Of a stretch of 52,311 nt of DNA, positions 775 to 31,565 are shown piece by piece. The translations under genes were made by a program, and so were the position numbers. Each line of letters begins with the position of its first letter. The first letter of the stretch is position 1. The DNA comes from an uncultured Methanomicrobia archaeon (GTDB lineage: Archaea; Halobacteriota; Bog-38; Methanoflorentales; Methanoflorentaceae), in NCBI GenBank assembly GCA_964355295.1, contig CAYHCZ010000002.1, forward strand, positions 1-52,311. The letters are read 5' to 3'. Below the pieces are notes generated by a model, which worked only from the letters and a program-made list of their open reading frames with translations, was not told the DNA's origin and made no database searches.

Positions 775-848
775 GGGCCTGTAGTATAGTCTGGATAGCA
801 CAGCGGCCTCCGGAGCCTCAAACCCGGGTTCAAATCCCGGCAGGCCCG
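775..848 (+). tRNA. tRNA-Arg, anticodon CCG, no encoded CCA
   Basis: Cloverleaf read by hand. Acceptor GGGCCTG/CAGGCCC. T arm CCGGG-TTCAAAT-CCCGG. Anticodon arm GCGGC-CTCCGGA-GCCTC, with loop CT-CCG-GA. There is one C:T mismatch in the anticodon stem and one A:C mismatch in the D stem. Confidence 0.8.
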
Positions 849-957
849 CTCTTTTTCGTCGTCTCTGTAAGGCGTCGTCCGAGCGCAGCTCTATTCCGAT
901 TAACGTAACCGCAGCAGCAGGTCGAGCAGGTGCTTTGCACCTTTTTCGAGCCGTTTC

Positions 958-7507: not shown

Positions 7508-7535
7508 ACTTAGAGATGATTACTGTCTTTCGTGT

Positions 7536-8230
7536 TCAAAAATCTGTTGAGTCACCTACATTATCTAAGACAATAGTTGCTCTTACGGTAATCATAAGCT
7601 GAGCTGCTGTGTGAAACACATGGTCGATCTCTGTGTACTTGCGCTTCGTTGAAACGTCTATTTTAGCGAGCACGAAGTTGTTACTCTTCATAGCAATCGC
7701 TGCGCGTCCAAAATTTTCCATTGAAAGACGCTGAGAAGGAGCACTAATGATTGCGACGTTTAACGCGGGTCTGAGCAGGGATCTTTGTCTTGACCGCATT
7801 ACAGGCCCCCAAAAATATGTTCTTAGCAATGAACACCGAGAATCAGAAGTGTGGATATGAACATGAGCCTGGTGGGGAGAGCAATGCGACTGAAATAGCG
7901 AGACTGTCCCGTCCTCTTTCCGCTTTAATCACAGCCGACACATAAGCAGGCGATTTTGATATTATTTCTGCAACAGGTGATTTAGTTTTTAGAAGGCATA
8001 TAAAAAAAATAGGTATAACTTTAGCCTATCCCCAGACCATACAAGCGACAGGAGACAGGCTATCACAACCTCTTTGCTAACTAAGTATACACACAATAGC
8101 TTAAAGAGCTCAGAGAAGGCGTGGATTACTGTCGCACTCTTTTTTCTGTCGTCCAAGAATGAGCCAATCCCGCCTACGAGGAAGACTATTTTTTTCTTTT
8201 TTACTACTTAGGGGGTGCGCTCATTAATTC
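7536..8230 (-). pseudogene. possible decayed GT4 glycosyltransferase (C-terminal half)
   Basis: The 97-aa ORF 7536..7829 contains SMENFGRAAIAMKSNNFVLAKIDVSTKRKYTEIDH, resembling a degraded E-x7-E block. Upstream in another frame is VFLVGGIGSFLDDRKKSATVIHAFSEL, resembling the GT4 'vGrl..KG' block. Several stops and frameshifts lie between them. Confidence 0.3.
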
Positions 8231-8427
8231 CGTGATGCCCGCCCTCTCGATTCCCATGATCCAACCAGGGAATCCTTCTATCCAAACTTCTTGCTATTAT
8301 GAAACATGAAGTATCCACAAACCGGGGTCCTTAATAGAATATGGTTTTCGACGCAAGATTTTCAGCAGAACTTTCTACTGAAAGCTTTCCGTGAAACTCT
8401 TAAAAAGTTACAGACAAATATTTTTAA

Positions 8428-8439
8428 AGCCATATGGCT
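8428..8439 (-). terminator. palindrome AGCCATATGGCT flanked by A/T runs, ~30 nt after the rfbH stop
   Basis: Perfect 12-bp palindrome. On the minus strand it is followed by TTTAAAAATATTT. Confidence 0.25.
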
Positions 8440-8471
8440 AAATAAGATGTGTTAGAACGTCCTTAGCAACG

Positions 8472-9788
8472 TCAATCGTTTTGTTTCGTAATTTGAGAAA
8501 AAACGTCGAGGACGTATTCGATCATAGCCTTAGTGACACCAGGGTAAATGCCGATCCAAAAGAGGAGTTTCATAACCAAGTCGGTGTTATGTAGACCCCC
8601 TACTGTTCTAAATCTCGCAGCTGCATAGGCGGGTTGTCTCGTCAGGTTGCCTCCAAACAGCATTCGCGTCGCAACGAATCTCGTCTCTAAAAAGTTGACC
8701 ACCGCGTCCCTTGTGAAGGGGGCGTTATCTTTTACCATTAATGGAAAACCAAACCAGTTCGGCGTGCTGTTCTTTGTTTTTTCGGGAAGAACGAAGTATC
8801 GATCGTGTTGCTTCATCCCTCGCAAGAGCTGTTGAAAGTTTTTCTTCCGCTGATCGATGAACGTGGGCATTTTTTTGAGCTGTTCTACGCCAACCGATGC
8901 TTGTAGATCAGTCATCTTAAGATTATAGCCGATGTGCGAGTAGATATACTTGTGATCATACCCTCGCGGGAGCTCCCCTAATTGCCACCCAAACCGGTTG
9001 TTGCACGTGTTGTCGTTACCGGGCAAGCAGTAGCAATCGCGGCCCCAATCGCGCAAAGAGAGGACGATTCTGCTGAGTAGCTGGTCATCAGTGAGAATCG
9101 CTCCCCCTTCGCCGGTCGTGATATGGTGGGCCGGATAGAAGCTGCACGTCGACATATCGCCGAAGGTTCCTGTATAGCGATTTTTATAACGTGAGCCCAA
9201 CGCGTCACAGTTGTCCTCAATCAGCCAAAGGCCATTTTCATCGGCTATCTCCTTGATTCTGTCAATTCTTGCGGGATTTCCGAGGGTGTGCGCGACAAAT
9301 ATGGCCTTCGTCTTGTCCGATAGCGCCAGTTCAATTTGCGGCGTTTGAACGTCGTACGTCCCTAAGTTAATGTCCACAAGAACAGGAACTAAGCCGTTTT
9401 GAATGATAGGGTTTAGTGTCGTCGGAAAACCACACGCGGTGGTGATAACTTCGTCTCCTGGAGCAAGCCTTCTGTCCCCTAACTTACGAGACGTCAGCGA
9501 GGATACCGCCAGCAAGTTGGCCGATGATCCTGAGTTCGTCAGCAAGCAATGCCGTAAGCCGACATAATCGGCAAGATCGCGCTCGAATTGTTGGGCGTAC
9601 GCGCCTGAAGTGAGCCAAAAATCCAATGATGCATCGACTAAGCTAATCAACTCTTTTTCATCATACACTCGACCCCCAACGGGAATCCTCGTTTTACCCT
9701 CAGCAAACGTCTTTCGTGCCTTTTGGGTCTCGTATAGCTCTCGTACACGAGCAAAGATCTCTTCTCTAATAGTAGCCTCAGTTCTCAT
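8472..9788 (-). CDS. rfbH: CDP-6-deoxy-L-threo-D-glycero-4-hexulose-3-dehydrase (E1, RfbH/DdhC type; DegT family)
   Basis: LVDASLDFWLTSG, LLTNSGSSANLLA, PGDEVITTACGFPTTLNPIIQNGLVPVLVD. The diagnostic SFYPAHHITTGEGG has His in place of the PLP lysine. The ATG at 9788 gives 438 aa; an alternative TTG lies at 9815. Confidence 0.85.
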   Translation of the reverse strand: MRTEATIREEIFARVRELYETQKARKTFAEGKTRIPVGGRVYDEKELISLVDASLDFWLTSGAYAQQFERDLADYVGLRHCLLTNSGSSANLLAVSSLTSRKLGDRRLAPGDEVITTACGFPTTLNPIIQNGLVPVLVDINLGTYDVQTPQIELALSDKTKAIFVAHTLGNPARIDRIKEIADENGLWLIEDNCDALGSRYKNRYTGTFGDMSTCSFYPAHHITTGEGGAILTDDQLLSRIVLSLRDWGRDCYCLPGNDNTCNNRFGWQLGELPRGYDHKYIYSHIGYNLKMTDLQASVGVEQLKKMPTFIDQRKKNFQQLLRGMKQHDRYFVLPEKTKNSTPNWFGFPLMVKDNAPFTRDAVVNFLETRFVATRMLFGGNLTRQPAYAAARFRTVGGLHNTDLVMKLLFWIGIYPGVTKAMIEYVLDVFSQITKQND

Positions 9789-11556
9789 CTTCTTCCGTTG
9801 TCGATATGGTATCAATTAACATGTTTCTTTCCAGTTCGTAGCGGGGCAAACGAGGCTCTTGGTCCTCGATGGGCATATTCACGCTCAACTTTGGCAGGGC
9901 GAGCGTGCTTTGTTCAATAGCTACTTCGAGAAACATAGGCTCCGCGTCCGCAAACAGCGTTGAAAGCGCAGCGGGTATTTGCGCGTTTCGACTGATGCGC
10001 CTTGCCCTTATTTGATACGCGTTAACAACGTCGACGAAATTCGGCGCGCTGTAGCCAATGACGGTGGACTGATATCGACTGTTAAAGTACTGCTGTTGAA
10101 ATTGCCGTACCATTCCGTAGCACCGGTTATTGAGTAACACTATTTTCACGGGGAGCGCGTGATGGTGCACGGTTTGCAGCTCCTGGATGTTCAACTGGAA
10201 TCCGCCATCGCCAACTATGACGAGTATTGTGCGCTCTGGCTTCGCAAATGATGCCCCGATTGCCATGGGCAATGCGGAGCCCATCGAAGCCATCCCTCCT
10301 TCGGTGAGTAACCTCTGATCGTTTTTCACGTCAAACGATTGTCCCGTCCACATTTGGATCTGCCCGACATCGACGCATACGACTGCATCATCAGGCGCTG
10401 CTCGAGATAGCTCGTGAATAAAGTAGTTTGGCACGATCGTCTCATCCATAGGAGTACCAAAAGGAGGGTATTTCGTCTTGTATTGTCGAATCCATTCCCT
10501 CCAATCGTTTGTTTGTGTACTAACTTCAGAGAAACTGTGTTGATTCATATAGCGCAAAAAAGGTTTTATATGTGAGTGTACTGGATACTCTGTCTTCACC
10601 TTGCAGTTTAGTTCGGCAGGATCGATATCGACGTGGATAATTCGTGCCGACCGAGCAAATGTTTCGGGTTTGGTCCCCGTCTGCCGCGTATCGAATCGCG
10701 TTCCCAGCGCGATAATCACGTCAGCATTCGCCACGGCGAGATTCGCGTAGCGGTTACCGTACGTACCGATCATACCGATAAAGAGTGGGTTATTGTGCGG
10801 AAAGGCGTCTAAGCCCATCAGAGAAGCTACGACTGGAATTTTGGTTTTGAGCACAAACTCAACAAGCGCATCGCGAGCGCCTGAAAGCCTGACACCCCCG
10901 CCCGCGATAATAACCGGACGCCGTGCGGATTTTATGACGTGAACCAGCATATCTATACGAGCTTCGTCGATTGTGTTCTCACTGCTGAGTCGCGCTTTGG
11001 AGGTTTCGAACAAAGATCGAGCAACGTGCTCCCTCTGAATATTCAACGGGAGATCCAAGAGCACAGGACCCGGACGACCACTCATCGCAAGGACATACGC
11101 ATCTTCTAACAAAGTGCCTACGTCGTTGGCATTTGTTATCAGTGTGGCTTTTTTTGTTATGGGGTCGACTATATCCACAATAGCGGTTTCTTGAAAACCG
11201 ATCTGCCGCGTTGCTGCGTCAAACTTGAACTCATAAGTATTGACTTGGCCAGTTATGAACAAACAAGGAATTGAATCAAAAAAGCAACTTCCGATTCCAG
11301 TTATCAAGTTCGTTGCGCCTGGGCCGCTCGTCGCCAGTGCGACGCCGACGTTTTCGCCTGCCCGAGCGTAGCCTTCCGCTGCGATCGCTGCAGCCATTTC
11401 GTGGTGCATAGATATGGCAGATATGTCGGTCCGACCGTACAAGGAGTCTAGCAGGTGCGCTAATGATCCGCCACATACTTCGAAAACGTGGGTAATGCCT
11501 TTAGAGACCAAAAAATCGATAACGTAATCCGATACTTTGACTGCAGAAGTTGACAT
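9778..11556 (-). CDS. thiamine-diphosphate enzyme of the acetolactate-synthase large-subunit family; candidate YerE-like sugar-branching enzyme
   Basis: 592 aa. N-terminal GGSLAHLLD...TSGPGATNL, and ThDP motif GDGGFQLNIQELQT..LNN. Its stop overlaps the rfbH start by 11 nt. Confidence 0.8.
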   Translation of the reverse strand: MSTSAVKVSDYVIDFLVSKGITHVFEVCGGSLAHLLDSLYGRTDISAISMHHEMAAAIAAEGYARAGENVGVALATSGPGATNLITGIGSCFFDSIPCLFITGQVNTYEFKFDAATRQIGFQETAIVDIVDPITKKATLITNANDVGTLLEDAYVLAMSGRPGPVLLDLPLNIQREHVARSLFETSKARLSSENTIDEARIDMLVHVIKSARRPVIIAGGGVRLSGARDALVEFVLKTKIPVVASLMGLDAFPHNNPLFIGMIGTYGNRYANLAVANADVIIALGTRFDTRQTGTKPETFARSARIIHVDIDPAELNCKVKTEYPVHSHIKPFLRYMNQHSFSEVSTQTNDWREWIRQYKTKYPPFGTPMDETIVPNYFIHELSRAAPDDAVVCVDVGQIQMWTGQSFDVKNDQRLLTEGGMASMGSALPMAIGASFAKPERTILVIVGDGGFQLNIQELQTVHHHALPVKIVLLNNRCYGMVRQFQQQYFNSRYQSTVIGYSAPNFVDVVNAYQIRARRISRNAQIPAALSTLFADAEPMFLEVAIEQSTLALPKLSVNMPIEDQEPRLPRYELERNMLIDTISTTEEDEN

Positions 11557-11628
11557 GACCTTCAGATCGATGCGCGCTGTGCTTGATTAGTACTGTGGTG
11601 AGCGGTGTAGTTTTACGCCTATATAAAT

Positions 11629-12310
11629 TCACTCGTACAAGGTTACATTAGTGCTGAACCAACCAATGGTAGCCACCAATCCCCGATCCAAATCATAAAC
11701 AGGGCTCCAGTCCAACATCTCTTTCGCTTTAGATATATCTGCCTGCTACAACGAGGCTCATTTGGCCACTTCTGTGGGTGCCCTCTTTGCGGCGTCACGT
11801 TCGCCCCTGTGAGTTGAACTATCGTATTCACAACGTCGCTAACAGTATGCTGTTGCCCAGAACCGATATTGAACACCTCTCCCGGAACTACAGATAATGC
11901 ATCGCAGCTCATATACGCGGCCAATATGTCCTCGATAAACACAAAGTCCCTCACAAAAGACATCGACGATATTTTCGGATTCTCACGCCGCAGGCACGAG
12001 AGCGTCACCGACGGGATGAACCGTTGACGGTCTTCAAAGTAGCCGCAGGTGAGAAGAACTTAACGTGACAATCGGGAGATTGTATTTTTGTGCACACGAT
12101 TGATAGAAAAGGGTAGCCGCAGCTTTGGACTTACCGTATCCACTTATGGGTTCCAGAGCCGCGTTTTCCTTCATAGGGGTGTCTTTGCGCCCGTATTCTG
12201 AGGATGATCCGGTGTTTACAAAAAGCTCAAATCCGAGTTTTTGACCGCCTTGAGTAGATTTGCCGTCCCTATGATGTTCGCGTCGTGTATCAGATGTAAT
12301 AAGCAACAGG
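11629..12310 (-). pseudogene. NAD-dependent epimerase/dehydratase (extended SDR) pseudogene, N-terminally truncated with at least 3 frameshifts
   Basis: Pieces occur in three frames. They are IHDANIIGTANLLKAV; FVNTGSSSEYG...SGYGKSKAAAT (YxxxK); GYFEDRQRFIPS..VRDFVFIEDIL..EVFNIGSG; and ADISKAKEMLDWSPVYDLDRGLVATIGWF. There is no Rossmann GxxGxxG segment. Confidence 0.75.
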
Positions 12311-12319
12311 AATATACCA

Positions 12320-12663
12320 ATGAAGAGCGATGGAAGTGCTATCAGAAATTTTTGTTACATTGCTGATTCTATACTGAGTTTTTTCTATATGCTTTTTAAG
12401 GGAAAAAATGGGGGACCTTACAATATAGGAAATGAAGACGTAGAGTCCAGCATCAGGCATTTAGCAAGCATTATTGGCGATCTTTCCCAGAAAAAGGACT
12501 TAGGGTTGAAGTGAATCAAGAACCGAGAAAAGAACCATATCTTAAGAGTAAGATTAAAAAATATTCTCCTGATTTAGCTAAAATCCGTGAACTTGGATGG
12601 GGGCCTCGCTTTTCACTTGAGGGAGGTTTTTTAAAAACATTAAGGAGTTATCAAGATGGATAA
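12320..12663 (+). pseudogene. C-terminal fragment of a second extended-SDR gene, with one frameshift near 12505
   Basis: DGSAIRNFCYIADSI..GGPYNIGNED, then shifted ..YSPDLAKIRELGWGPRFSLEGGF. It is homologous at protein level to the C-terminus of 14095..15165. Its stop overlaps the next ATG (ATGGATAA). Confidence 0.65.
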
Positions 12664-13573
12664 AAGAAGCAAACTAAGAGAGCTGGAAGCAGGTTACAGG
12701 AAAGATAGCTTGTCCAAGGAAGAGTATATAAAGAAGATGCATGAGGAACACAGAAGCCTTTTTGATTACTCTGAGTTTATAAAAGACAAAAATATTAAAT
12801 CAATAATAGTCTCTGAGGACGTTATACTTGAAGTGAAAAATGGGATAAAGCTTGTTTGGGACCCAGAAGATGAGAGAGCGACCCCTGTTGAGATAGTTAA
12901 TTTTGGAGATTACGAGGCTGAAGAGATACGGATGCTGCAGACTTTTCTTAAGGAAGATAGTGTCGTGCTCGATATTGGTGCTAATGTTGGATGGTATAGC
13001 TTGATTCTTGCGGGGAAAGTTCCAAAAGGGAAGGTGCTCTCATTTGAGCCAATACCAAAGATTTTTGATTATCTAAACAAGAATATTAGGATAAATAACC
13101 TCGCTAATATTAAGACGTACAATTTTGGTTTCTCAGAAAAACAGGATCTATTGGATTTTTATTATGATCCTCTCCTGACTGCGTCAACTTCATTAAGGAA
13201 TCTGCATGAGAACCGAGAAAAAATTAGAATTAGATGTGAGGTAAGAAGGATGGATGACGTTATTCCAAAAATTGCCCCAAGGGTGGACCTGATCAAGTGT
13301 GATGTTGAGGGGGCTGAAATATTTGTGATAAAAGGAGGACTTGAAGTTTTAAATAATACAAAGCCTGTTCTTTTCCTAGAGATGCTTAGGAAATGGTCTG
13401 CTAAATTTGGGTATCATCCTAATGATATTATCGCAATATTAAAAGGGATAGGCTATAGGTGTTACTATGCTGAAAGTGGAAAACTGGTACAAATTGACAA
13501 GGTGACTGAAGAAACTATCGCAACTAACTTTTTCTTTATCTACCCAGAAAGAGATATCAAAATAAATTCTTAA
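12656..13573 (+). CDS. FkbM-family SAM-dependent methyltransferase
   Basis: VLDIGANVGWYS, LSFEP, IKCDVEGAE. AAGGAG lies 8 nt upstream of the ATG. Confidence 0.8.
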   Translation: MDKRSKLRELEAGYRKDSLSKEEYIKKMHEEHRSLFDYSEFIKDKNIKSIIVSEDVILEVKNGIKLVWDPEDERATPVEIVNFGDYEAEEIRMLQTFLKEDSVVLDIGANVGWYSLILAGKVPKGKVLSFEPIPKIFDYLNKNIRINNLANIKTYNFGFSEKQDLLDFYYDPLLTASTSLRNLHENREKIRIRCEVRRMDDVIPKIAPRVDLIKCDVEGAEIFVIKGGLEVLNNTKPVLFLEMLRKWSAKFGYHPNDIIAILKGIGYRCYYAESGKLVQIDKVTEETIATNFFFIYPERDIKINS

Positions 13574-13574
13574 A

Positions 13575-13911
13575 ATGTTAGGTAAAAATACCAGAAGTAT
13601 CGCTAGCAATTCCGATTTACAATGAAGAAGCGTGTGTAGGCAGCACTGTGAAAAATCTCGCTGAAGAGTTTGAGAAACATAAAGTGGATTATGAATTGAT
13701 TCTTGTAAACCAGATTCTGTGGACAAAACTCAGGAGATTCTCGGAAAAATTGAAAAAAGCAACAAAAATTGAGAGTGATACATTTAGAGAAGAATCTGGG
13801 AGGGCTGGAGGTAGAGTGATGTATGGGCTTAATGTTGCTAGTGGGACATACATTGGATTTACCTATGCAGATGAAGAAGTTTCTGCAATGCTCAAAGCCG
13901 CACTGGCGTGA
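13575..13911 (+). pseudogene. N-terminal ~110-codon fragment of a GT2 glycosyltransferase with internal compensating frameshifts
   Basis: SLAIPIYNEEACVG...YELILVN. The expected D-S-VDKTQEILGKIEKSNKN appears only in an alternate frame. The original frame then resumes with GLNVASGTYIGFTYADEE, followed by a stop. Confidence 0.6.
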
Positions 13912-14094
13912 GCGCTAGATTCTTCAGTTTTACTGCCGAGAGTGGCAGGGCAAAACCAACCGCATCATCGGTGTGATAGAGTCAATGAAATCTAATTGCA
14001 TTCGAACTTATCAAAGCTGCTGCCCGCAAACGCGGAATTTCGGTTTAATATTTTTATTTTCTTCTTTCCTGACTTATAATAACAAAAAATCATC

Positions 14095-15165
14095 TTATTC
14101 TGCAACAGCAAAAGGTTCATCAAAACTATCAATCATTTGTCGGAATCCTTGCTCAATGGAAATGGCCCATTTAAACCCAAGGTTTGAAAGTTTCGTAACA
14201 TCAGGGGTTGTTCGAAGAAGCGGACTTGCAATATAATCTGTTTTTTCTAGTGGTTTTTCAAAGATTACAGATAATTTTTTTTCTGGATATAATTTTACCA
14301 ACATTTTTGCTAATTCCAAAATAGTTGTTTCTGTCCCATTCCCGATATTATATGCTTCATTAGGATTTCCTTTGAGTAATACGGTGAACAAACCAACCGT
14401 TGTATCGGCTAAATAAGTAAAGCTCCTGACAGCAGATCCATCTGTATGAAGAATTATATTTCGATTATTTATGATATCATTCGCAAAATCGGCAAATACA
14501 CGACCATCATCTAAACTGACACCCGGGCCATATGTATGAAAAATTCGAGCAATTTTAGTGGTGAGATGAAACTGATGATTCCATGCAATGCACATAGTTT
14601 CACTCATTCTTTTACTTTCAGTGTAAGAAGCTTTGAGATCTAAAGGATCAATTGAGCCATAATAATCTTCTCTGTAGGGTAAATGAGATGAATCAACTCG
14701 TCCATAAACTTCGCCACTACTAAAAAAGAGAAACCCTTCACAATGTTTGTCATTTGCTAAATTTAAAAGATTAATTGTACCTAAAGTATTTGCTTTCAGG
14801 GTTCCTACAGGGTCTTTGCCAAAATATTTAGGGCTGGCTTGACTTGCTGCGTGAATAACAAAATCAATTCGACCGTCATAATTAACAGGCTCACTCACAT
14901 CTTGAATTAGGAAATCCAAATCGCTTCTTCCTTTATAATATGCAAATCGTTTCATCGCTTTTTCGTGATTCCGTACTAGTGCAATGAGATGAACATTAAA
15001 TGATGGATCCTTTTCATTCAAATAAAGAAGTGTCTCAACCATATAAGCGGGAATTAAGCCATTTGCGCCAGAAACAAGAACTATTTTGTTACGAAACCTA
15101 TCCCAACTTAACTTTGTTTTAACAATATATTCTAGATCATTTTGAATAATTCGATTCCTTCTCAT
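14095..15165 (-). CDS. NAD-dependent epimerase/dehydratase (extended SDR; UDP-glucuronate-decarboxylase-like)
   Basis: VLVSGANGLIPAY (Rossmann), FFSSGEVYG, YTESKRMSE (YxxxK), RIFHTYGPG; 356 aa; visibly AT-rich. Confidence 0.8.
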   Translation of the reverse strand: MRRNRIIQNDLEYIVKTKLSWDRFRNKIVLVSGANGLIPAYMVETLLYLNEKDPSFNVHLIALVRNHEKAMKRFAYYKGRSDLDFLIQDVSEPVNYDGRIDFVIHAASQASPKYFGKDPVGTLKANTLGTINLLNLANDKHCEGFLFFSSGEVYGRVDSSHLPYREDYYGSIDPLDLKASYTESKRMSETMCIAWNHQFHLTTKIARIFHTYGPGVSLDDGRVFADFANDIINNRNIILHTDGSAVRSFTYLADTTVGLFTVLLKGNPNEAYNIGNGTETTILELAKMLVKLYPEKKLSVIFEKPLEKTDYIASPLLRTTPDVTKLSNLGFKWAISIEQGFRQMIDSFDEPFAVAE

Positions 15166-16128
15166 TTCGAAACCACTTGGTTGTGATTATTATCGTCTTC
15201 TCTCAAATATATTTATTTAAACAGCAATCATAATTTTTTTACAACGACAATAAAACAGAATTATGTGAAAGATATGCATTGAAAATCGAACTCGCCTAAG
15301 CCCTCGAAACGGCATTCAATTCAATGGAACTTCGTGCCCCTTTTCTTTTGATCGATCCCGAAAATCGCAATTACTGTGCCAAATGTTCACCCAAATTGAG
15401 CATAGTTGTGCCTATCAAAATTATCAAAAATTCGTCAACGGGGGCGTCTAAATGAGAGTCGCTGGATCTCATACAAGCAAATATTACCCACCACTAGTGA
15501 AGCAATCGAACAAGCGTATGTAACAGCATCCAGACTAAAGCCGAGTCTCCCAAGAGAGGATACTAAGCGCTTCATTCCAAGTACTAGAACTACATTGAGG
15601 CTCTCAACAAATAGTGAAGATTTGTTCGATTATAGCATAAGCAACTACATCGTTGTTGAATCGAAGAGAGCGACGCCGCTAGAGTGGCGCAGCTTTGCCA
15701 TTTTTCGTGTTGTGAATGCGATCAACAACGATATGGACTCCTAGATGCTTTCGATGGGGCCGTTAGGAAAAGAGCTTGATTACTGGGTCTTCTGGATTCG
15801 TTGGAACTAATCCGCTAAGGGTTCCTTTTTAGAGATAGCGAGATATACGTAACGATACAAAGAACGCTAGTATATGGCAAGTAGTAGCGTGCTAGCGCGC
15901 GTGCACGTGCATTATGCAGACCGCTCTGCATCACAAGCTGCCAGATATTAATCTACCACCCTATAGGATGCGTCTTTATGTGCTGGGAGTCAAGTCATGT
16001 TCCCGTCAAAAAGCATATGTCAGTTGTGGCAGCCTAACTTGGAAAAGTAGAGCTATTACGGTGCTAGGCGTTGTCGTGAAGGATCGCATAAAAAGATAAC
16101 AACACGTTCACTCACCTTCGGATTCTTG

Positions 16129-17112
16129 TTAGTCAAACCCTATCGCGCCTTGAACGATGTACGTCGGACGTTGCTTCACTTCCTCATAAATTCGTCCAAC
16201 ATAAACCCCGAGTATTCCGAGGAAAAAAAACAAAACCCCAAACAAGAATAGCATCAATATTATCGTTGTGGTGAAACCCGGCACGACACGCCCGTACGTA
16301 AAATATAGCCATAGTTCAAAGATAATGAGTGCGAACGAGATGAGTGACGTGACAAATCCTGCGAGTGTCGCCAAATACAGCGGTATGTATGAAAACGAAA
16401 AAATGCCTTTAAATGCAACTCCTAGCACGGTTCTTATGTCCGCTTTTGATTCGCCAGCGTATCGCGGCGGCCGTTCGTAGGAGATGCCCGTCTGCTTGAA
16501 TCCCGTCCACGCAATCACGCCGCGGAGATACTTGTCCTTCTCTTTCATGCTGTTGACGACCAAACAAACGCGCCTATCAATTAGTCGAAAATCGCTTACA
16601 TCTTTGGGTATTGTCTTGTCCGTTAGGAAGAAAATTAGCCTGTACGCTATAGAGGAGAGAATACTTCTTACGAACGAGACGCCCTCTCGTTTTTTTATAA
16701 TGCCACATACGATTTGAAAACCGTCTTCCCATTTAGCAATAAACTGTGGGATCATCTCAGGCGGGTCTTGAAGGTCAGCATTCATAATGACCGCCGCTTC
16801 ACCTCTGACGTACTGGAGTCCAGCGGCAATTCCTCCCTCGCATCCAAAATTGCGCGACAATTGAAGCACTTTGAACCGCGGATCTTCAACGTGGAAGTTC
16901 ACCAGTTTTTCAAATGAGGAGTCATGTGAGCCGTTTTCGACCATGATGACCTCAAATCTGTAGCGATCGCAGCGATCCATAACTGCTTGTAGCCGTTTTT
17001 TGAGCTCACCTAAAACCTCCTCCTCGTTGTACACTGGTATGACTATACTGATCGGCGTCTCTTTAGGGGACGTTCCGTACGATTCATTTGAACAAACAGT
17101 CATACCAATCAA
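16129..17112 (-). CDS. polyprenyl-phosphate glycosyltransferase, GT2 (GtrB/ArnC/DPM1-like) with two C-terminal TM helices
   Basis: [48 protein letters not shown], and a hydrophobic C-terminus. Confidence 0.85.
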
Positions 17113-18055
17113 TCGTCTCCATTAGGCCCTCGTCAAGCGTATAGTGCGGCCCCCAGTTTAATACTGTTTTTGCCTTCTTCGCTGAGAGATACTGTTGAAG
17201 GATCTCGCCAGAATACCTGTTTTGGATGATGGGTTCTAAGTCACTTTTCATAAGATCGAGAATCTTATGGACGATACTTAAGACGGTGTTGGGCTCCTCC
17301 GTGCTGAAGTTAAAAGCCTGTCCGTGAATTTTTTTGGTGTCCATGCTCTTTCCGAGCAATAAATAAGACTCCGCGCCATCTTTCACATAGAAGTAATCAC
17401 GAATCAAAGAGCCATCGCTTCTGATAATTGGCCGTTGATTATGCAAAACGGCACGAATCGTGCCGGGCACGATCCTGTTGAAATTGAGATCGCCGCCCCC
17501 GTACAAGTTGCCGCACCGCGTGACACAAACAGGCAGGTCATACGTCGCGAAGTACGCCTGGCTCAGCAAATCTGCACAACTCTTTGACACATCATACGGG
17601 TGTCGTCCTCGTAGCGGCGTTGCTTCGTCGTACGGCAACGCATCGTGCCCCCCATATGCTTTGTCACTGGACGCGACGATGAGTCGTGAAAAGCAGGATG
17701 CTTTTCTGCAAGCCTCGAGAATATTCCATGTTCCTTCGATGTTTGATTTGAACGTCGAAAGGGGCCCTCGATTCGCAATCGTCACAATGGTCTGCGCCGC
17801 CAAATGAAATACCGTATCGATCTCGTATTCATTGAGAATTCTCTCCAAGAGGGGGTAATCCTCAATACTTCCCTGCACAAGCACGCTTTGTTTGTCCACT
17901 CCGGACAAAAAAAGATTAGAGTTCGGTACCAAGTCCCTGATTAATCCGATCACGTACGCGCCGTGTTCGATAAGCGACTTGACAAGCCACGATCCAAGGA
18001 GTCCTGAGCACCCTGTTACGAAAACAGTTCTATCTCTCCAAAAGTCGTTTGTCAC
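17084..18055 (-). CDS. rfbG: CDP-glucose 4,6-dehydratase
   Basis: [43 protein letters not shown]. It overlaps the downstream GT2 by 29 nt. Confidence 0.85.
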
Positions 18056-18092: not shown

Positions 18093-18554
18093 CTACTTAT
18101 CGTTTGCTTTGAAACTCCAATACTTGTTGCCGGTAAAACTAATGACCAACACCAAAGGAGTCAAAATAAATTGTGCCAGCCGTGGTTCGAGTTTCAAAAA
18201 ATCGACGCACAGTAGAAGAGCACCCGCATTGGCTGTAAAGGCAATAATGTAGACGGCATTTAATTTTACGAATTCCTCTATTGATCTTCGATGGTGAAAA
18301 ACCCAGTTGTGATTCCAGACATAGCTATTTGTCACACCGATGATAGTAGCACATCCCAACGCGATTAAATATTGGATATAGTTCACTAAAACAAAAAATG
18401 CAACGTAGCCAATGACTGTATTCAAAACGCCGACTAAGCTATACTTAATAAACTGATTGATTGACGATTTTTTATCGTCAGCGAAATAGCCCGTCATTTT
18501 GTGAAAGAGAAAGCGTATCGGCCTCACTTTCATTGAGCGATAAGTGCCGTTCAT
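18093..18554 (-). CDS. gtrA: GtrA-family small membrane protein (lipid-linked sugar translocation)
   Basis: [22 protein letters not shown]...[10 protein letters not shown]...NKYWSF. Four predicted TM segments. Confidence 0.8.
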
Positions 18555-18563: not shown

Positions 18564-19346
18564 TTACCAGACTTTCCACGGAGGGGTAGACGTTCTCCAG
18601 ATATTATTGACGTACTCCAGTTCTCTAGGGGTGTCTATACACTGCCAGAAGCCGTCGTGCTTGTAAACCATGAGCTGGCCGTCATTAGCTAAGTTCATGA
18701 GGGGCTCCTTTTCCAAAATACAGTCGTCTTCTTCATTCAAATATGAAAAAAAGGCCCAATCAAACACGAAGAAGCCGCCGTTAATCAGTCCTTCAGTCAC
18801 TTGCGGTTTTTCGTTAAATTCCACTACCTTGTGCTTGTCTGTAATGAGTTCTCCAAATCGAGACGACGGTCGCACTCCCGTTACTGTGCCTATCTTTTTG
18901 TGTGACTTGTGAAACTCTACAAGCTTGGCTATGTTGACGTTCGATATCCCATCTCCATAAGTAACCATGAACCACTCTTCTGTTATGTGCTTCTTTATTC
19001 TTCTAATTCGTGCTCCGGTCTGCGTATGTTCTCCCGTGTCTGCCAAAGTAACCGTCCATTCTTTTTCGTCGTGATCGCTGTGAACACAAGTATTCGCGTT
19101 ACCTAGCTGGACTGTAAAATCGCTGTTCATCATCGCATAGTTTAAGAAATACTCTTTGATCATGTGTCCCTTGTAACCAAGACAAATGACAAAGTCACTA
19201 TACCCGTAGTGCGCATAAGTTTTCATTATGTGCCATAAGAGTGGTTTATCTCCGACATTAACCATTGGTTTCGGCCTGAATTCAGTTTCTTCACGCAAAC
19301 GAGTACCAAGCCCTCCACTCAAGATTACCACTTTTGCTTGAGCCAT
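18564..19346 (-). CDS. rfbF: glucose-1-phosphate cytidylyltransferase
   Basis: KVVILSGGLGTRLREETEFRPKPMVNVGDKPLLWHIMKTYAHYGYSDFVICLGYKG. The ATG at 19346 matches homologue length; alternative upstream starts lie at 19397 (ATG) and 19427 (TTG). Confidence 0.85.
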   Translation of the reverse strand: MAQAKVVILSGGLGTRLREETEFRPKPMVNVGDKPLLWHIMKTYAHYGYSDFVICLGYKGHMIKEYFLNYAMMNSDFTVQLGNANTCVHSDHDEKEWTVTLADTGEHTQTGARIRRIKKHITEEWFMVTYGDGISNVNIAKLVEFHKSHKKIGTVTGVRPSSRFGELITDKHKVVEFNEKPQVTEGLINGGFFVFDWAFFSYLNEEDDCILEKEPLMNLANDGQLMVYKHDGFWQCIDTPRELEYVNNIWRTSTPPWKVW

Positions 19347-19777
19347 GTCTGTCGGAGTGCCATCAGAATATGTTGTCGGTTTTTTCTTCTCAGCCATCTG
19401 TTTATGCGACCAGTTACTTGATTTCAACCTTAATAAGCCTTAATGTGTACTAGAAATCATCTGATGAGCATAAATACTGTTTTAAACTCCTAAGACCTAA
19501 TTGAAAATTAAGCTCAAATAGATTTTAAATCGCGCCTACTCACTCTTCTTTATAACTTACCCCTGCAAAGCGTATCATACCGGTCCAAATGTTGTCACCC
19601 ACAACTGGTTCCCACTACAGAGGCTGAATACGTGGAATGATATTAACCGTTCAAACGCCTGCAAGGTTCATTGAACGTTAGCCTCTTTCCCAGCGAATAG
19701 CTAATGAGGAAGGCGAACAACAAATACTCCCTTGTGCGTGCGAGATCGCCTCGCAATTAGTTGAAGTTCCGAGCTGC

Positions 19778-21325
19778 TCACGCACGCTTCTGATATAAGT
19801 ATACTTTGTATCCATAGTAATTCTTGACACCTCTCTGCGCGTAGGACGTGTTTAGAAGGTCCAGTATATAGTTCGCCTGAGCTGTTTCAGAGGTAGGAAA
19901 CGCGAAAAACCAAACCCTGTCGTGGCCCTTCACATCAGAATAAATTGTTTGGTTTATTACATTCGTATTGTCCAATTGTGCCTGGGCCGACCCCCAGCTA
20001 CGAATTTGTTTGACGGCAATGTCGGTCCTATTATTATAGTAGTCAAAAATAAGCTCCTTATCCGGAAAAACCAAAACAACATCTCCGCTTTTAGCATAAG
20101 CATCTATAAATCCGACTGCCTCTCGTGCTTCCCCAGTTCTGTTTAATGCATAATAGGGTGGCAAGCTTGCCGTGGATAGCAAGACAATGACCGCAATAAC
20201 TGCCAATCTCGTGTACTTCCGGTTGATGTTTTGTATCCCGGCAGCGACGAGCATGTAAAAAGCGACGCTGGCCGGGATGGTGTACTTGTAGTAGTAAACT
20301 GGCTGCGTAAAGCGCGAAATCGTAAACGGTATCACTATAAGAGCGAATAGCCAGACAACGAGAAACAGAACACTTGTTACGTTGACGACACGTACGTTCC
20401 AGGAATAGCTCGTTACAGCTTTTAAGGGGGTTCTCCAATCGAATAGACCGGTTTGTTTCATGTACCTGAACAAAGATAGAATAGACAGTAAAATGAAAAT
20501 TATCGAAAGCAACACGGTGCTTGCGCTTAACTCAAAAATGGGACTTCCGCTAGCGTATTTGACAAATGTCACCATCAAATCGAACGTCGTGGGACTCAAC
20601 AACCAATACCCCCCACCCTGCAAAGACGATGCTCGATGAATAAGGACAGGAATCCATGGAGCAAAAAGGGCGACGACGATCGCCTGCAGCATTACCCACC
20701 GCTTCAGCTGAAACGTATGCCTCGCCAACAAGAGGACTAGTACCATCACATAGATGTTCTGAGCAAGAACGACAAACAACCCATAAAAGTGCGTGTACAC
20801 GACCAGTGTGGTAGAGAGTACGTATCCTGCTGACGAAGCAAGCGTATTCCGCTGCTGCCAGCGTAAGAAGAAGTACATGGAAAGAAGAGTGAGGAAGACC
20901 ATTAAGCTGTACCCGCGTGCTTCTTGCGACCACCAAATATTGAACTGTGAGAGCGCGAGAATGAGCGCAGCTATTAGCCCTACCTCCTTGCCAAAGAGTT
21001 GACGGCCTACAACGAAAATTAGCGGTATCGCGAGAACCCCGAATAGGGCCGATAAAAATCTTGCGGCCAACTCTGAAGTGCCGAATAGGATTACCCAATA
21101 GTGAAGAATAAAAAAGTAGAGCGGAGGATGTATATCTAATGCTGCTGTGGATCGCAGCATTTCAGGCACGCTCATTTGAGACATCCAAACAGACCAGGCT
21201 TCGTCATACCAGATGCTTTGTGCGCCTAACCGATAAACTCTGAAGAAGAAACCAACGAGGACAATAACCAACAATAAAAAGCCATAACTAGTTATCCTCT
21301 TGCCAGAAACGTGCAGCACGCACAT
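19778..21325 (-). CDS. GT-C glycosyltransferase, family 39/83 type (PMT_2 / ArnT-like)
   Basis: YDEAWSVWMSQ..DIHPPLYFFILHYW..GTSELAARFLSALFG. About 12 TM segments plus a C-terminal soluble domain. Confidence 0.8.
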   Translation of the reverse strand: MCVLHVSGKRITSYGFLLLVIVLVGFFFRVYRLGAQSIWYDEAWSVWMSQMSVPEMLRSTAALDIHPPLYFFILHYWVILFGTSELAARFLSALFGVLAIPLIFVVGRQLFGKEVGLIAALILALSQFNIWWSQEARGYSLMVFLTLLSMYFFLRWQQRNTLASSAGYVLSTTLVVYTHFYGLFVVLAQNIYVMVLVLLLARHTFQLKRWVMLQAIVVALFAPWIPVLIHRASSLQGGGYWLLSPTTFDLMVTFVKYASGSPIFELSASTVLLSIIFILLSILSLFRYMKQTGLFDWRTPLKAVTSYSWNVRVVNVTSVLFLVVWLFALIVIPFTISRFTQPVYYYKYTIPASVAFYMLVAAGIQNINRKYTRLAVIAVIVLLSTASLPPYYALNRTGEAREAVGFIDAYAKSGDVVLVFPDKELIFDYYNNRTDIAVKQIRSWGSAQAQLDNTNVINQTIYSDVKGHDRVWFFAFPTSETAQANYILDLLNTSYAQRGVKNYYGYKVYLYQKRA

Positions 21326-22667: not shown

Positions 22668-24455
22668 TTACCTTACTGGCGTCATTATATCGAAGAATTC
22701 ATTGTTCCATGCCAGCGTATAGTTATGTGCTGCAATAAACCGCTCCATTACATCCTGGCTTTCAATGGGTTTTGTCTTATCAGGCCAATCAAAGGCACGA
22801 GTGTCAATTTTTGCTCGTACTATCACCGGCAACACACCTTTTTCTTTCAGGGACTGGTTCAAAATATTACTAAATTGATCCGAAGTATACAAGTCCGGCC
22901 AAGAATTATCAAGATAGGGTCTGCTTCCGGTTAAATAATATACCATTGGTATACTTCCAGACGCTAAGACATAATCGTCTTTTTCTACGTAAAGAGGCAG
23001 CTCGTCAACCAAGCCTTGAACAACATGTGCACGTTCTTCAGTCGTAAAAACATACTTCAAATATGGATGTTTCACACTATATCTCATTTCAAACCGGTCT
23101 GAACTATCGCGATAGGTATACTGATACGCACTGATTAATGACAAACTCAAGAAAAAGATGAGAATTAAACACACAACTTTTTTCGTCGGGATTTTTGATA
23201 AGTCTACACTATGTTGTGGCACAATTTTGTTTCCAGTATTTGGACCAAGTCTTAAGTTAAGCCCATTGAATTCCAATAAACATACACCGATAGGTATCGC
23301 AAGCCACATACCATAAATTGCATTTAATACTCCATTACCCGATCCTAATGGTGAGATTACCAACAATAGCAATGCGGTTAATGACAGTAGTGGTAATTGT
23401 TTTTTGTCAGGACTACGCCAAATAATATTTTTCACTAATAAGAGGCACAAAAATCCATACACTACCATAATGACATAACTTCCGACAGGAACTGCAATGA
23501 AGATTGTAATTCCTGTCAGATATATCACGAGTAAAAAGCCAATTGATCCAAATGAAGAACGCGAAGTTAACCAAGAATCTATTTTCGAAATCAGAATAAT
23601 TCCGATTATTGAAATTAATATTAACGAAAACACTAGGAGATGATCCTTGATAAAAAGGGAGAGTAACCCTGTCCCACTATATCTGGATGTTGGGTTCAGC
23701 CCACCATTAACAAATAAATCCAGTATTGAATTGACATATAATCCAAACTGTCCAAGAAAAACAAGTGCTCCACTAATAATGAGTATCGTAATAACAAACC
23801 CTGAAATGAAAAAAAGGGCACTTTTTATCGATTCTTTTACGTTAATCGTATTCCAGTAACCCTGCGCAAAAATACAAAGAACAAGGAGAATTCCGAGAAT
23901 ATTTGAAATCCTGTTGAAGAGATTTAATCCTAAAAAAACACCGGATAGGAGAACAAACTTGTTCTTGTATTCCAACAACCCTCTAATGAGGAAATATGCT
24001 GCGATAACATAGAAGAGCGCAGTTAAGTTGTTATAATTTATCCAAGAGAGACGGATAATAAATAATTCTGCCAAAAAAAGACCGAATAACACATATTCTT
24101 TTTTAAAATACGGTTTAAGAATAAAAAATACAAAAAAAATGGTTGCATACACAATGAATACTGAAGCAAATCTGAACCCGATCAGCCCAAACTCACCAAA
24201 AAAATGTAACCACACACCCCCTAAAAAATTGGTTAACCACTCCGAAAAACCGAATTGGACGGTGGTTGGATTATTAAAAATTTGCTGGGCATTAGTCAAT
24301 GCATACCCCGTATCGGTAAAATCCAGTCCTTGCCAAATCAAAAAAAAAGGAAATAAAATTAACAAAATAAACAAAAAAATTGATAAATTCGAACTTAGTT
24401 TAATCTCATCACGGAGTGCTTTTTTAATATTTAAAAACCAGGCTGTTCTGTCCAT
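22668..24455 (-). CDS. large polytopic membrane protein, candidate GT-C-fold glycosyltransferase or polymerase (family unassigned)
   Basis: 595 aa, at least 12 hydrophobic segments, an acidic first loop (WQGLDFTDTGYALT), and a ~150-aa C-terminal soluble domain. Strongly AT-rich compared with its neighbours. Confidence 0.6.
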   Translation of the reverse strand: MDRTAWFLNIKKALRDEIKLSSNLSIFLFILLILFPFFLIWQGLDFTDTGYALTNAQQIFNNPTTVQFGFSEWLTNFLGGVWLHFFGEFGLIGFRFASVFIVYATIFFVFFILKPYFKKEYVLFGLFLAELFIIRLSWINYNNLTALFYVIAAYFLIRGLLEYKNKFVLLSGVFLGLNLFNRISNILGILLVLCIFAQGYWNTINVKESIKSALFFISGFVITILIISGALVFLGQFGLYVNSILDLFVNGGLNPTSRYSGTGLLSLFIKDHLLVFSLILISIIGIILISKIDSWLTSRSSFGSIGFLLVIYLTGITIFIAVPVGSYVIMVVYGFLCLLLVKNIIWRSPDKKQLPLLSLTALLLLVISPLGSGNGVLNAIYGMWLAIPIGVCLLEFNGLNLRLGPNTGNKIVPQHSVDLSKIPTKKVVCLILIFFLSLSLISAYQYTYRDSSDRFEMRYSVKHPYLKYVFTTEERAHVVQGLVDELPLYVEKDDYVLASGSIPMVYYLTGSRPYLDNSWPDLYTSDQFSNILNQSLKEKGVLPVIVRAKIDTRAFDWPDKTKPIESQDVMERFIAAHNYTLAWNNEFFDIMTPVR

Positions 24456-24634
24456 TGAATATTCGCCGTATATAAATTGTAATATTATGCGTTATTGTCC
24501 AAACTAAAAACAGATCTTTTCCCGTTTTAGAGTTTGTAACAATTGAGCCGACATTCCTTAGTGAGCATATTTTCGTTCAGAAATTAACTGAATGTTTTGA
24601 AATAGTGATTACTCGGTTATTGCCACCTGGGGGT

Positions 24635-26271: not shown

Positions 26272-27699
26272 CTAGCGCAGCTCATGTTCGTTTTTATCTC
26301 CTCTGCCGATACCTTTGTATATGAACCCGTTCGCGATAAAGTCATTGGCAGACACAATGTTGCGCCCGTCTACAATGACCGGATGATTGCGACCAGTAAG
26401 CACTTTTAGCTCCTGAGGATCGAGTTGCGAGTATTGGCTGTGGCCAGTCATTATGACAATAACGTCTGCGTCCTGAACAACTTCCTTCAAACTGCTCGAA
26501 ATTGGGAAGTCACTATGTGTAGTAACGTAAGGGTCGTGGATTGAGACGTGAGCCCCTACCTGCGACAGAAGGGTCCAGCACGTCTGCGACGGTGTATCCC
26601 TCACATCGCCTGAATTTTTGGTAAATGCCCACCCCAGCAGGGCTATTTTAGCATCGTTCAGGCCTTTGCCTATTTTCTTGAGCGCCTCCTCAATAAGCTT
26701 GACTACGTGTTTTGGCATAAAGTCATTCACTTCTCTGGCGACTATAAAGAGCGATCTTTCTGATTGGGGATAATCGAGCGGTATTTGAGACTCCTTCACC
26801 CCGAGCTCGAGTAGGTACGTGTCTTTGCTCAGACAGTGACCACCAACTCCGGCACCAGGAGATAGAACGGCGCGCGAGACCCCTTCACCTTTCAGGCTGT
26901 TTATGCCGGTCCGCACATCGTATACGTTGACGCCCATAGCTTCGCAGTAAAGGGCAAGCTCATTTACAGCTGCAATCTGCAAGTCGCGGAATGCATTTTC
27001 GGCAGTTTTCGTAACTTCAGCAGCTTTTGCTGACATAGGAATGACTCTGCCTGTCGTCAGCACACATCTGTACAGTTGGACAGCTCTGTCCGTGCTAGCC
27101 TTGTTGATGCCTCCTACGATTCGATCAAGCTCTTGGATATTACGGAGCAATCGGCCTGCTGCAACGCGTTCTGGCGCGTGTGCGAGGGCGAAATCTTCAC
27201 CTGCGACCATGTTTGACTCCTTCTCAAGCAGGTTTCGGGCAAGTCCTTCCGTGGTACCAGGGGCGACCGTCGATTCAAGCACTACGAGCGTTCCCTGAGT
27301 AATGTGTTTTCCCGCCTCTTGCAGTCCTGCACGCAGTGCGCGGAAATCGTGTTGCAGACTGCGTTTGTCAATGAATGGGGTCTGTATTGTGAACGTTAAC
27401 GCGTCGACTTCAGCTATCTTCGAAAAATCAGATGTGCAGCGGAACTTCTTGCCTTGAACGACTTTTTGGATGAGTTCCTGCAAGCCAGGCTCGTCACCTA
27501 CCAAAGGGTTTTCACCACGGTTGAGCATGTCGATCTTATACCCTGATGAGGGTGAATCTCTTTGAAAGCCCCATACCCATTCAAACGCGCGATCTGCGAA
27601 AAGCATCGCAGAAGGGATACCCACGTAACCCATACCTACGATACCTATCCGCCGTATTGGGCCTTTTGCGTCGAGTATCTGTGCTAATCGTCCCTTCAT
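26272..27699 (-). CDS. wbpA: UDP-N-acetyl-hexosamine 6-dehydrogenase (WbpA/WecC family nucleotide-sugar dehydrogenase)
   Basis: IGIVGMGYVGIPSA (Rossmann), catalytic-Cys region GVGGHCLSKD, C-terminal UDP-binding domain. The ATG at 27699 is preferred over the TTG at 27708. GlcNAc versus ManNAc specificity cannot be decided by eye. Confidence 0.8.
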   Translation of the reverse strand: MKGRLAQILDAKGPIRRIGIVGMGYVGIPSAMLFADRAFEWVWGFQRDSPSSGYKIDMLNRGENPLVGDEPGLQELIQKVVQGKKFRCTSDFSKIAEVDALTFTIQTPFIDKRSLQHDFRALRAGLQEAGKHITQGTLVVLESTVAPGTTEGLARNLLEKESNMVAGEDFALAHAPERVAAGRLLRNIQELDRIVGGINKASTDRAVQLYRCVLTTGRVIPMSAKAAEVTKTAENAFRDLQIAAVNELALYCEAMGVNVYDVRTGINSLKGEGVSRAVLSPGAGVGGHCLSKDTYLLELGVKESQIPLDYPQSERSLFIVAREVNDFMPKHVVKLIEEALKKIGKGLNDAKIALLGWAFTKNSGDVRDTPSQTCWTLLSQVGAHVSIHDPYVTTHSDFPISSSLKEVVQDADVIVIMTGHSQYSQLDPQELKVLTGRNHPVIVDGRNIVSANDFIANGFIYKGIGRGDKNEHELR

Positions 27700-31561: not shown

Positions 31562-31565
31562 AATA

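Follow-up and report, generated by a model that had tools for sequence, protein, structure and literature searches.

The chemistry of YerE and the gene set of yerE, yerF and the ddh genes have been described in bacteria (PMC12247030, PMC9306805, PMC4509608), and canonical yersiniose clusters comprise ddhA–ddhD together with yerE and yerF (PMC4509608). Here, we analyse two overlapping genes from an uncultured Methanomicrobia archaeon that encode a YerE-like carboligase dependent on thiamine diphosphate (ThDP) and an RfbH-type 3-dehydrase. They lie on contig CAYHCZ010000002.1 (assembly GCA_964355295.1) in a stretch of 52,311 nucleotides, the whole of which was analysed and is called the window below. 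In our judgement, the two genes are likely to be the core of a cytidine diphosphate (CDP)-sugar pathway to a C-4 acyl-branched 3,6-dideoxyhexose of the yersiniose kind. An earlier reading of the same DNA (the original prediction) had proposed a yersiniose-like branched dideoxy sugar; this proposal is supported in silico, and those of its suggested checks that could be run all came out in its favour.

The pathway type is already known from bacteria. The yersiniose A pathway of Yersinia pseudotuberculosis O:6 and Pseudomonas shares with the window the CDP-glucose route, with a cytidylyltransferase, a 4,6-dehydratase and an E1 enzyme that has the characteristic His and an iron–sulphur (Fe–S) motif (PMC9306805, PMC4509608). 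Common to both are also a C-4-branching ThDP enzyme resembling acetohydroxyacid synthase (AHAS) and a partner of the short-chain dehydrogenase/reductase (SDR) superfamily. The window differs in having no ddhD, in that a UDP-xylose synthase-like SDR is intact whereas the commoner SDR is a pseudogene, and in the addition of an FkbM-family methyltransferase. Furthermore, the host is archaeal, and the genes are linked to those of GtrA, a GtrB-like family 2 glycosyltransferase (GT2) and GT-C enzymes rather than standing in an O-antigen Wzx/Wzy context. ErwE, MMAR_2332 (long-chain branching, erwiniose/caryophyllose) and JanthE, which we compared by description only, belong to the same YerE-like subclass and act on CDP-4-keto-3,6-dideoxyglucose or ketones; their clusters supply donors via a pyruvate aldolase and an aldehyde dehydrogenase, both of which the window lacks (PMC12247030, PMC9306805).

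Results

The product of the upstream gene contains the Pfam domains TPP_enzyme_N, TPP_enzyme_M and TPP_enzyme_C, and its segment GDGGFQLN...NN reads GDG-X24-NN (G449-D450-G451 to N476-N477), within the GDG-X(24–27)-NN range of the class. Thus, the full AHAS-type ThDP architecture ascribed to this 592-residue protein was recovered. The catalytic glutamate (E53) and the GDG...NN residues are invariant in the family alignment. AHAS large subunits (IlvB, IlvG, IlvI) belong to the same three-domain fold family and likewise have the catalytic Glu, the RFDxR region and the GDG-X24-NN motif, but the window enzyme departs from them in its profile score, in its signature residues and in its genomic context. 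It falls under every NCBIfam acetolactate synthase cut-off (TIGR00118, 513.4 bits against 538.35), whereas the controls E. coli IlvB (670.7) and IlvI (946.7) both pass; four other members of the window family (486–526) and the structure 5AHK (392) fail as well. The top solved-structure match is 5AHK from P. protegens at 385 bits, compared with 345 for plant AHAS, and we take 5AHK to be PpYerE, the ketone-accepting YerE homologue of Pseudomonas protegens. A structure of PpYerE exists, and its residue V479 is named in a review (PMC12247030). Native position 479 of the 5AHK chain is likewise a Val, provided that Met1 is chain residue 21.

A neighbour-joining tree (575 columns, 200 bootstraps) was built with eight true AHASs and, as more distantly related references, glyoxylate carboligase (Gcl) and pyruvate oxidase (PoxB). 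Seven of the AHAS references are bacterial, each encoded beside a small-subunit gene, and the plant one, a PDB chain, has no genomic context; the plasmid collection that was a source of AHAS references contained true ilvB and ilvG only, at most 37.6% identical to the ThDP protein. The window family and 5AHK formed one clade in 199 of 200 bootstraps, with all eight AHASs outside it. Three features are confined, among the tree sequences, to the window family and 5AHK, namely a six-residue insertion after TGQVNT in the substrate-channel region, the motif RFD[T/V]RQTG with one extra residue, and a Phe that replaces the Trp of GMVRQ[W]Q (GMVRxFQ). This Phe486 is invariant in the window family, while the Trp is present in six of the eight AHAS references, the exceptions being E. 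coli IlvB with Gln and the plant chain with Leu; the position is presumably that of At W574 and of E. coli AHAS II W464. By profile, the window family is nearer to AHAS than 5AHK is (513 against 392 bits), at 37.5% identity between the two.

According to the Pfam annotation of the window, neither an ilvN-like small-subunit gene nor ilvC lies beside the ThDP gene, whose neighbours are rfbH and an SDR pseudogene. Because the enzyme fails the cut-offs, groups with 5AHK, shares its insertion and substitutions and has no adjacent small-subunit gene, we conclude that, as far as sequence can tell, it is not a biosynthetic acetolactate synthase. A separation from true acetolactate synthases had been proposed beforehand as a check, and it is seen both in the TIGR00118 failure and in the well-supported clade. 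The enzyme has the sequence and context characteristics of the YerE-like subclass, and its predicted role is to place an acyl branch onto C-4 of a CDP-4-keto-3,6-dideoxyhexose.

The rfbH open reading frame (ORF) extends from 9815 to 8472, and the ATG at 9788 gives a protein of 438 residues. This protein contains SFYPAHHITTGEGG, with His at the lysine position. It passes the NCBIfam RfbH equivalog NF011936 with 687.8 bits (cut-off 423) and aligns end to end with 3bcx, the E1 structure from Y. pseudotuberculosis (527 bits), placing His221 opposite E1 His220. Its cysteines are arranged as C194-X57-C252-X-C254-X7-C262; the spacing C-X57-C-X1-C-X7-C is, we assume, the unusual [2Fe–2S] motif of E1. 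Both the His and the four Cys ligands are invariant in 69 of 69 aligned RfbH homologues. The equivalog pass, the 3bcx alignment and the His kept in these homologues agree with the original prediction that the protein is a His-containing E1-type dehydrase and not a Lys aminotransferase, and by these comparisons the window RfbH is a true E1/RfbH-type CDP-4-keto-6-deoxyglucose 3-dehydrase. A ColD-like enzyme without an Fe–S cluster was considered and rejected, as all four Cys ligands are there. The rfbH start codon (9788–9786) falls within the 3' end of the ThDP gene, which stops with TGA at 9780–9778, and the 11 shared nucleotides are ATGAGAACTGA; the sequence therefore bears out the 11-nucleotide overlap described for these two minus-strand genes.

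To place the pair among other genomes, one genome per species was scanned with the signatures TGQVNTYE and GM[IL]G[TS]YGNR. At least 593 relatives of the window ThDP enzyme were found in species-representative genomes, and the best 80 were used for context counts. For synteny we used the 52 of these best-80 loci with at least 5 kb on either side, and counted RfbH homologues at 45% identity or more. An RfbH homologue was present in 50 of the 52 loci, and RfbH, RfbF and RfbG-like proteins occurred together in 48, showing that the pairing with rfbH to which attention had been drawn is no coincidence. Archaea account for 17 of the best 80 genomes (Methanomicrobia, Methanoregula/Methanoregulaceae, Methanotrichaceae, Methanosarcinaceae and Ca. 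Argoarchaeum); RfbH is encoded at every one of the 17 archaeal loci, directly downstream of the ThDP gene in 10 of them. The remaining genomes include Omnitrophota, candidate-phyla-radiation bacteria, Elusimicrobiota, Nitrospirota, Geobacter and Paenibacillus, and the linkage of the yerE-like gene to rfbH, rfbF and rfbG spans more than 10 phyla. Among the matches listed, the closest ThDP relatives are encoded on a metagenome contig (L090, 86%) and in a metagenome-assembled genome of a peat-bog Methanomicrobia (L004, 77%), and the best matches in the set for RfbF, RfbG and the GT2 are archaeal (65–68%). The window also encodes a DUF1616 protein. Nearest relatives and DUF1616, rather than a marker gene, make an archaeal host likely. 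In the Methanotrichaceae loci L031 and L037 the order is rfbF-gtrA-rfbG-GT2-D-SDR-FkbM-yerE-like-rfbH, which is the full gene content of the window (D-SDR is the intact SDR type described below). Given the recurrent synteny and the invariant RfbH residues, we take the pairing of the yerE-like gene with rfbH to be a conserved functional unit, of which the window is one example within a common cluster. Clusters of this type occur widely in both archaeal and bacterial public genomes.

Most relatives encode, directly upstream of the ThDP gene, an extended SDR with a length of some 320 residues, and the copy in L090 is intact (316 residues). The window pseudogene at this position matches residues 93–316 only, contains at least three frame changes and has lost the Rossmann nucleotide-binding N-terminus. 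Since a stretch of 7317 nucleotides with the pseudogene and both genes is 100% identical to a separately assembled contig (run ERR3804378), the frameshifts are not artefacts of one assembly. An intact pair of SDR and FkbM genes is found 2.5 kb away in a low-GC patch at 12300–15165, which has a GC content of 0.35–0.39, compared to 0.46–0.50 on both flanks, and begins exactly at the truncation point of the pseudogene, with a fall in GC from 0.49 to 0.35–0.37. The GC content is 0.365 for the FkbM gene and 0.348 for the intact SDR gene, compared with 0.49 for the yerE-like gene and rfbH, and the patch would fit a recent arrival of the FkbM and SDR genes by insertion or recombination.

This intact SDR, here called D-type, has the catalytic Ser and YxxxK, and its top PDB match is UDP-glucuronate decarboxylase (152 bits). 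In eight loci, homologues with 46–53% identity adjoin the YerE-like gene; the other SDR type is missing from all eight, and FkbM is adjacent in five of them. No locus has both a D-type and a p-type SDR. FkbM homologues stand beside a D-type SDR and a ThDP enzyme in L016, L021, L031, L032, L037 and L096–L098, and in the last three (Bacteroidetes, Microcystis and one metagenome contig) the SDR–FkbM pair accompanies other ThDP enzymes that form C–C bonds. The D-type SDR is thus a candidate to replace the decayed SDR, in a YerF-like or other reductase role, and the FkbM methyltransferase is predicted to be a tailoring enzyme of the branched sugar. We concluded from this co-location that the SDR–FkbM module would tailor ThDP-branched sugars and appears to have displaced the original SDR here, so that the pseudogene should not disable the pathway. 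The decay of the adjacent SDR, which had been entered as a caveat, was confirmed, whereas its force as an objection to the pathway is largely removed by the intact SDR and methyltransferase module at 12656–15165.

Loci L096–L098 show further arrangements. L096 (11080–13725) and L098 (3679–6272) encode distant YerE-like enzymes of 602–607 residues, 33–35% identical to the window protein, each followed by an HpcH/HpaI aldolase, an arrangement that resembles the donor supply described for ErwE. The Microcystis aeruginosa contig L097 (3353–12248) carries the SDR–FkbM pair with an RfbG-like protein, an RfbH-like DegT protein, a transketolase split into N and C halves, GtrA and a GT2, which suggests a cyanobacterial branched-sugar cluster with a transketolase-type rather than a YerE-type ThDP enzyme.

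The E3 reductase (DdhD/AscD) of the canonical pathway was sought in the window and in 1.53 Mb of related loci, about 90 in number (L001–L083, L088–L090 and L096–L098). Pfam annotation gave no E3-like reductase gene in the window or in L001–L003, L088–L090 and L096–L098; across the whole set, a motif scan found a ferredoxin-type [2Fe–2S] motif in no sizeable ORF, and tblastn with E. coli Hcr returned no homologue resembling ferredoxin–NADP reductase. These three negative results agree with the original report that the window has no E3 reductase, and the absence is general to the cluster family and not a defect of the window. All E1 partners keep their Fe–S ligands, so an electron donor is still needed; the donor of RfbH is probably a housekeeping ferredoxin or flavodoxin system encoded elsewhere. 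In the 960-nucleotide gap after rfbH (7508–8471) there is no credible small ferredoxin or other gene.

The genes that would supply the earlier steps were predicted nearby, and both rfbF and an rfbG-like gene are indeed found 5.5–8 kb away. The rfbF product passes its equivalog, whereas the rfbG candidate stays under its own and is assigned by best-family match only. The TIGR02623 match begins at residue 32 of the rfbF ORF, and the real start may be downstream of 19427. Homologues of the rfbG-like gene product (60–68% identity) are encoded next to rfbF in archaeal loci, and gtrA sits between rfbF and rfbG, as it does in L010, L022, L031 and L037. The GT2 gene overlaps the end of rfbG; its product has two C-terminal hydrophobic segments (243–272 and 275–309) and best NCBIfam matches to PgfS (249 bits) and ArnC (147 bits), both under cut-off, with homologues of 58–65% identity within the same operon in the archaeal loci L010, L022, L027, L029, L031 and L037. 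Upstream of the rfbF/gtrA/rfbG/GT2 group are two PMT_2 genes, and the protein of the one closer to rfbF has about 8–10 hydrophobic segments and weak matches to a mannosyltransferase family and Agl23.

A GtrA protein, a membrane-anchored GT2 and GT-C enzymes are therefore encoded together, as in Gtr/ArnC-type modules. This single string of GtrA, GT2 and PMT_2 genes resembles GtrA/GtrB/GtrX of enterobacteria, ArnC/ArnT and the AglD/AglS steps of archaeal N-glycosylation, but the donor here would be a CDP-linked branched dideoxyhexose, and we know of no GtrB-like GT2 documented to use one. The gene content suggests that the sugar may be delivered via a polyprenyl-phosphate carrier. The features of the locus are listed in Table 1.

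Table 1. Coordinates of the yerE-like/rfbH pair and associated features in the window
Feature	Coordinates	Strand	Basis or remark
rfbH/ddhC, E1-type CDP-4-keto-6-deoxyglucose 3-dehydrase, 438 residues	8472..9788	-	Type dependent on pyridoxamine phosphate and [2Fe–2S]
YerE-like ThDP-dependent carboligase, 592 residues	9778..11556	-	ThDP domains, 5AHK clade, synteny
TTTATATA, archaeal TATA-box-like element	11620..11627	-	64 nucleotides upstream of the ThDP gene ATG
Pseudogene of extended SDR	11632..12299	-	Directly upstream of the ThDP gene, as the intact SDR in most relatives
FkbM-family S-adenosylmethionine-dependent methyltransferase, intact	12656..13573	+	Pfam Methyltransf_21; TIGR01444 104 bits against cut-off 37.7
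Extended SDR, D-type, UDP-glucuronate decarboxylase-related, intact, 356 residues	14095..15165	-	Pfam Epimerase
GT2, GtrB/ArnC/PgfS type (polyprenyl-phosphate sugar synthase type)	16129..17112	-	Pfam Glycos_transf_2
rfbG-like nucleoside diphosphate-hexose 4,6-dehydratase, short 323-residue type	17084..18055	-	Best family CDP-glucose 4,6-dehydratase
GtrA-family small membrane protein, putative flippase of polyprenyl-phosphate-linked sugar	18093..18554	-	Pfam GtrA_DPMS_TM (PF04138), 88 bits
rfbF/ddhA, glucose-1-phosphate cytidylyltransferase	18564..19427	-	TIGR02623 equivalog, 343 bits against cut-off 300
Multi-span PMT_2 (GT-C type) glycosyltransferase, candidate for final transfer outside the membrane	19778..21325	-	Pfam PMT_2, 51 bits
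Second PMT_2 (GT-C type) membrane protein, multi-span	22668..24455	-	Pfam PMT_2, 26.4 bits, at threshold

The element TTTATATA at 11620..11627 is a possible promoter of the yerE-like/rfbH pair, for which its position alone is suggestive; the sequence occurs four times in the window, compared with 2.75 expected, and is not above chance. A second copy at 24469–24476, also on the minus strand, stands 14 nucleotides upstream of the ATG of the second PMT_2 gene, where it would fit a leaderless archaeal transcript. A scan of the window for sigma-70 promoters and terminators, a type of scan unsuited to archaea, did no better than on shuffled sequences.

Several neighbouring features of the window were also recorded. 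A five-gene set at 26272–32642 encodes a nucleotide-sugar 6-dehydrogenase, a hexapeptide acetyltransferase, a DegT aminotransferase, a GFO/IDH/MocA oxidoreductase whose best match is an archaeal UDP-GlcNAc 3-dehydrogenase, and a WecB 2-epimerase, which is the only one of the five to pass a curated cut-off. The set looks like a WbpA/B/E/D/I-type route to UDP-2,3-diacetamido-2,3-dideoxy-uronic acid, a type of sugar found in methanococcal N-glycans. The plus-strand gene at 32725–33984, which adjoins these uronic-acid sugar genes, encodes a protein with the C-terminal domain of D-glucuronyl C5-epimerases (PF06662, 139 bits). Placed among genes for glycosyltransferases and methyltransferases, the minus-strand gene at 38137–39945 encodes a protein of 602 residues that has many hydrophobic segments and matches neither Pfam nor NCBIfam families; it could be a polymerase or some other membrane enzyme of a GT-C-like kind. 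At the left edge there is a tRNA-Arg(CCG) gene (775–849, plus strand), and the first 2 kb have a GC content of 0.51, compared to 0.38–0.49 elsewhere; positions 1–2000 may mark the boundary of a glycan gene island. Finally, two stretches of about 960 nucleotides each, 7508–8471 downstream of rfbH and 15166–16128 between the D-type SDR and GT2 genes, contain no credible ORFs and may be further gene remnants.

Discussion

The pathway that we propose would begin with RfbF, which by its family assignment makes CDP-glucose. The RfbG-like SDR, judged by its best family match and its position, would convert this to CDP-4-keto-6-deoxyglucose, from which RfbH, as an E1-type enzyme with pyridoxamine phosphate and a [2Fe–2S] cluster, would remove the 3-hydroxyl, with its electron donor encoded outside the window. 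The YerE-like enzyme would then decarboxylate a 2-oxo acid, most likely pyruvate, and transfer the acyl anion equivalent onto the ketone at C-4; from its place in the tree, its signature residues and the synteny, we expect a tertiary alcohol with a two-carbon branch as the product. The recurrent co-location of the D-type SDR and FkbM with ThDP branching enzymes suggests that these two may tailor the product, e.g. by reduction of the side-chain ketone and O-methylation. From the gene content, the GtrB-like GT2 would load the sugar onto polyprenyl or dolichyl phosphate, GtrA would flip it, and a PMT_2 (GT-C) enzyme would attach it to a surface glycan or protein. As for the history of the locus, the commoner SDR may once have been intact upstream of the ThDP gene, until the low-GC SDR and methyltransferase module took its place, leaving behind a relic that is truncated and frameshifted.

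Several points weigh against this proposal. Overall identity does not discriminate, as the ThDP enzyme is 37.5% identical to 5AHK, scarcely above the 36.9% to plant AHAS; 5AHK is the one characterised YerE-type reference, and its identity as PpYerE is presumed, with the Val479 check as the one point in its favour. DdhD is missing, whereas canonical yersiniose clusters have ddhA–ddhD, and the rfbG candidate scores 203 bits, under the CDP-glucose 4,6-dehydratase equivalog cut-off of 278. The FkbM gene stands apart from the others, on the opposite strand and within a patch that has large gaps between coding sequences. Furthermore, the identity of the donor, the functions assigned to the SDR and the methyltransferase, and the acceptance of a CDP-sugar by the GtrB-like GT2 are all predictions from sequence.

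The alternative that survives best keeps the sugar-branching role and changes the donor. The product would be an erwiniose- or caryophyllose-like or a new branched sugar, made from a longer or hydroxylated 2-oxo acid, 2-oxobutyrate, hydroxypyruvate or glyoxylate. Donor preference varies widely among ErwE, MMAR_2332 and JanthE (PMC12247030), the window family is remote from 5AHK in identity, and the tailoring genes differ from yerF alone. However, the aldolase or other donor-supply gene that ErwE clusters encode is absent from the window and from most loci of the subfamily, and the ThDP enzymes linked to an HpcH/HpaI aldolase (L096, L098) belong to a distant subgroup. We therefore regard a non-pyruvate donor as unlikely, though the one rival with some real chance of being right.

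That the cluster is decaying, with the SDR and any E3 partner lost and the sugar no longer made, seems very improbable to us. The pseudogene directly upstream of the ThDP gene, the missing E3 and the long non-coding stretches at 7508–8471 and 15166–16128 would fit such a state. By contrast, rfbF, rfbG, rfbH, the yerE-like gene, the D-type SDR, FkbM, GT2 and gtrA genes are all full-length with catalytic motifs, E3 is absent from all related loci although most of these look intact, and the window has a complete alternative gene set equal to that of L031 and L037. Weaker still, and hardly credible, is an ordinary biosynthetic acetolactate synthase (IlvB) that just happens to adjoin sugar genes: high overall AHAS similarity, a TIGR00118 score only 25 bits under the cut-off, the plant AHAS identity and the label 'acetolactate synthase' given to relatives in source databases speak for it, but true IlvB identity was rejected on the curated cut-offs that true AHASs pass, the split from eight AHASs in the tree, the insertion and the Trp-to-Phe change, and a gene context with no small-subunit gene or ilvC nearby and with rfbH/rfbF/rfbG linkage over more than 10 phyla.

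Within the preferred pathway to a yersiniose-kind sugar, the source of electrons for RfbH invites a speculation. Because about 90 loci show no reductase, the Fe–S ligands of E1 are invariant and the yerE-like and rfbH genes are tightly paired, often overlapping, the YerE-like flavoenzyme might double as E3, passing electrons from pyruvate via ThDP and flavin adenine dinucleotide (FAD) to the [2Fe–2S] cluster of E1 and so driving both 3-deoxygenation and branching. AHAS has a known FAD-reducing side reaction. We give this idea little credence.

Our literature searches, which did not reach all prior studies, turned up no archaeal example of such a pathway or of branched sugars. We know of no description of an archaeal surface glycan that contains a carbon-branched sugar. 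The general absence of E3 poses the question of how E1-type dehydrases are reduced in these mostly anaerobic organisms. The family of the ThDP enzyme is routinely mislabelled 'acetolactate synthase', and the combination of TGQVNT[YH]E, GMVRQF and linkage to rfbH would permit correct annotation. YerE-like enzymes are wanted as catalysts for chiral tertiary alcohols (PMC12247030), and this large, diverse and partly archaeal YerE-like subfamily widens the toolbox for them. In summary, taken together with its relatives in 17 archaeal genomes of the best 80, the cluster predicts branched sugars in Methanoregula, Methanotrichaceae, Methanosarcinaceae and their relatives, and may thus serve as a guide for glycobiologists.

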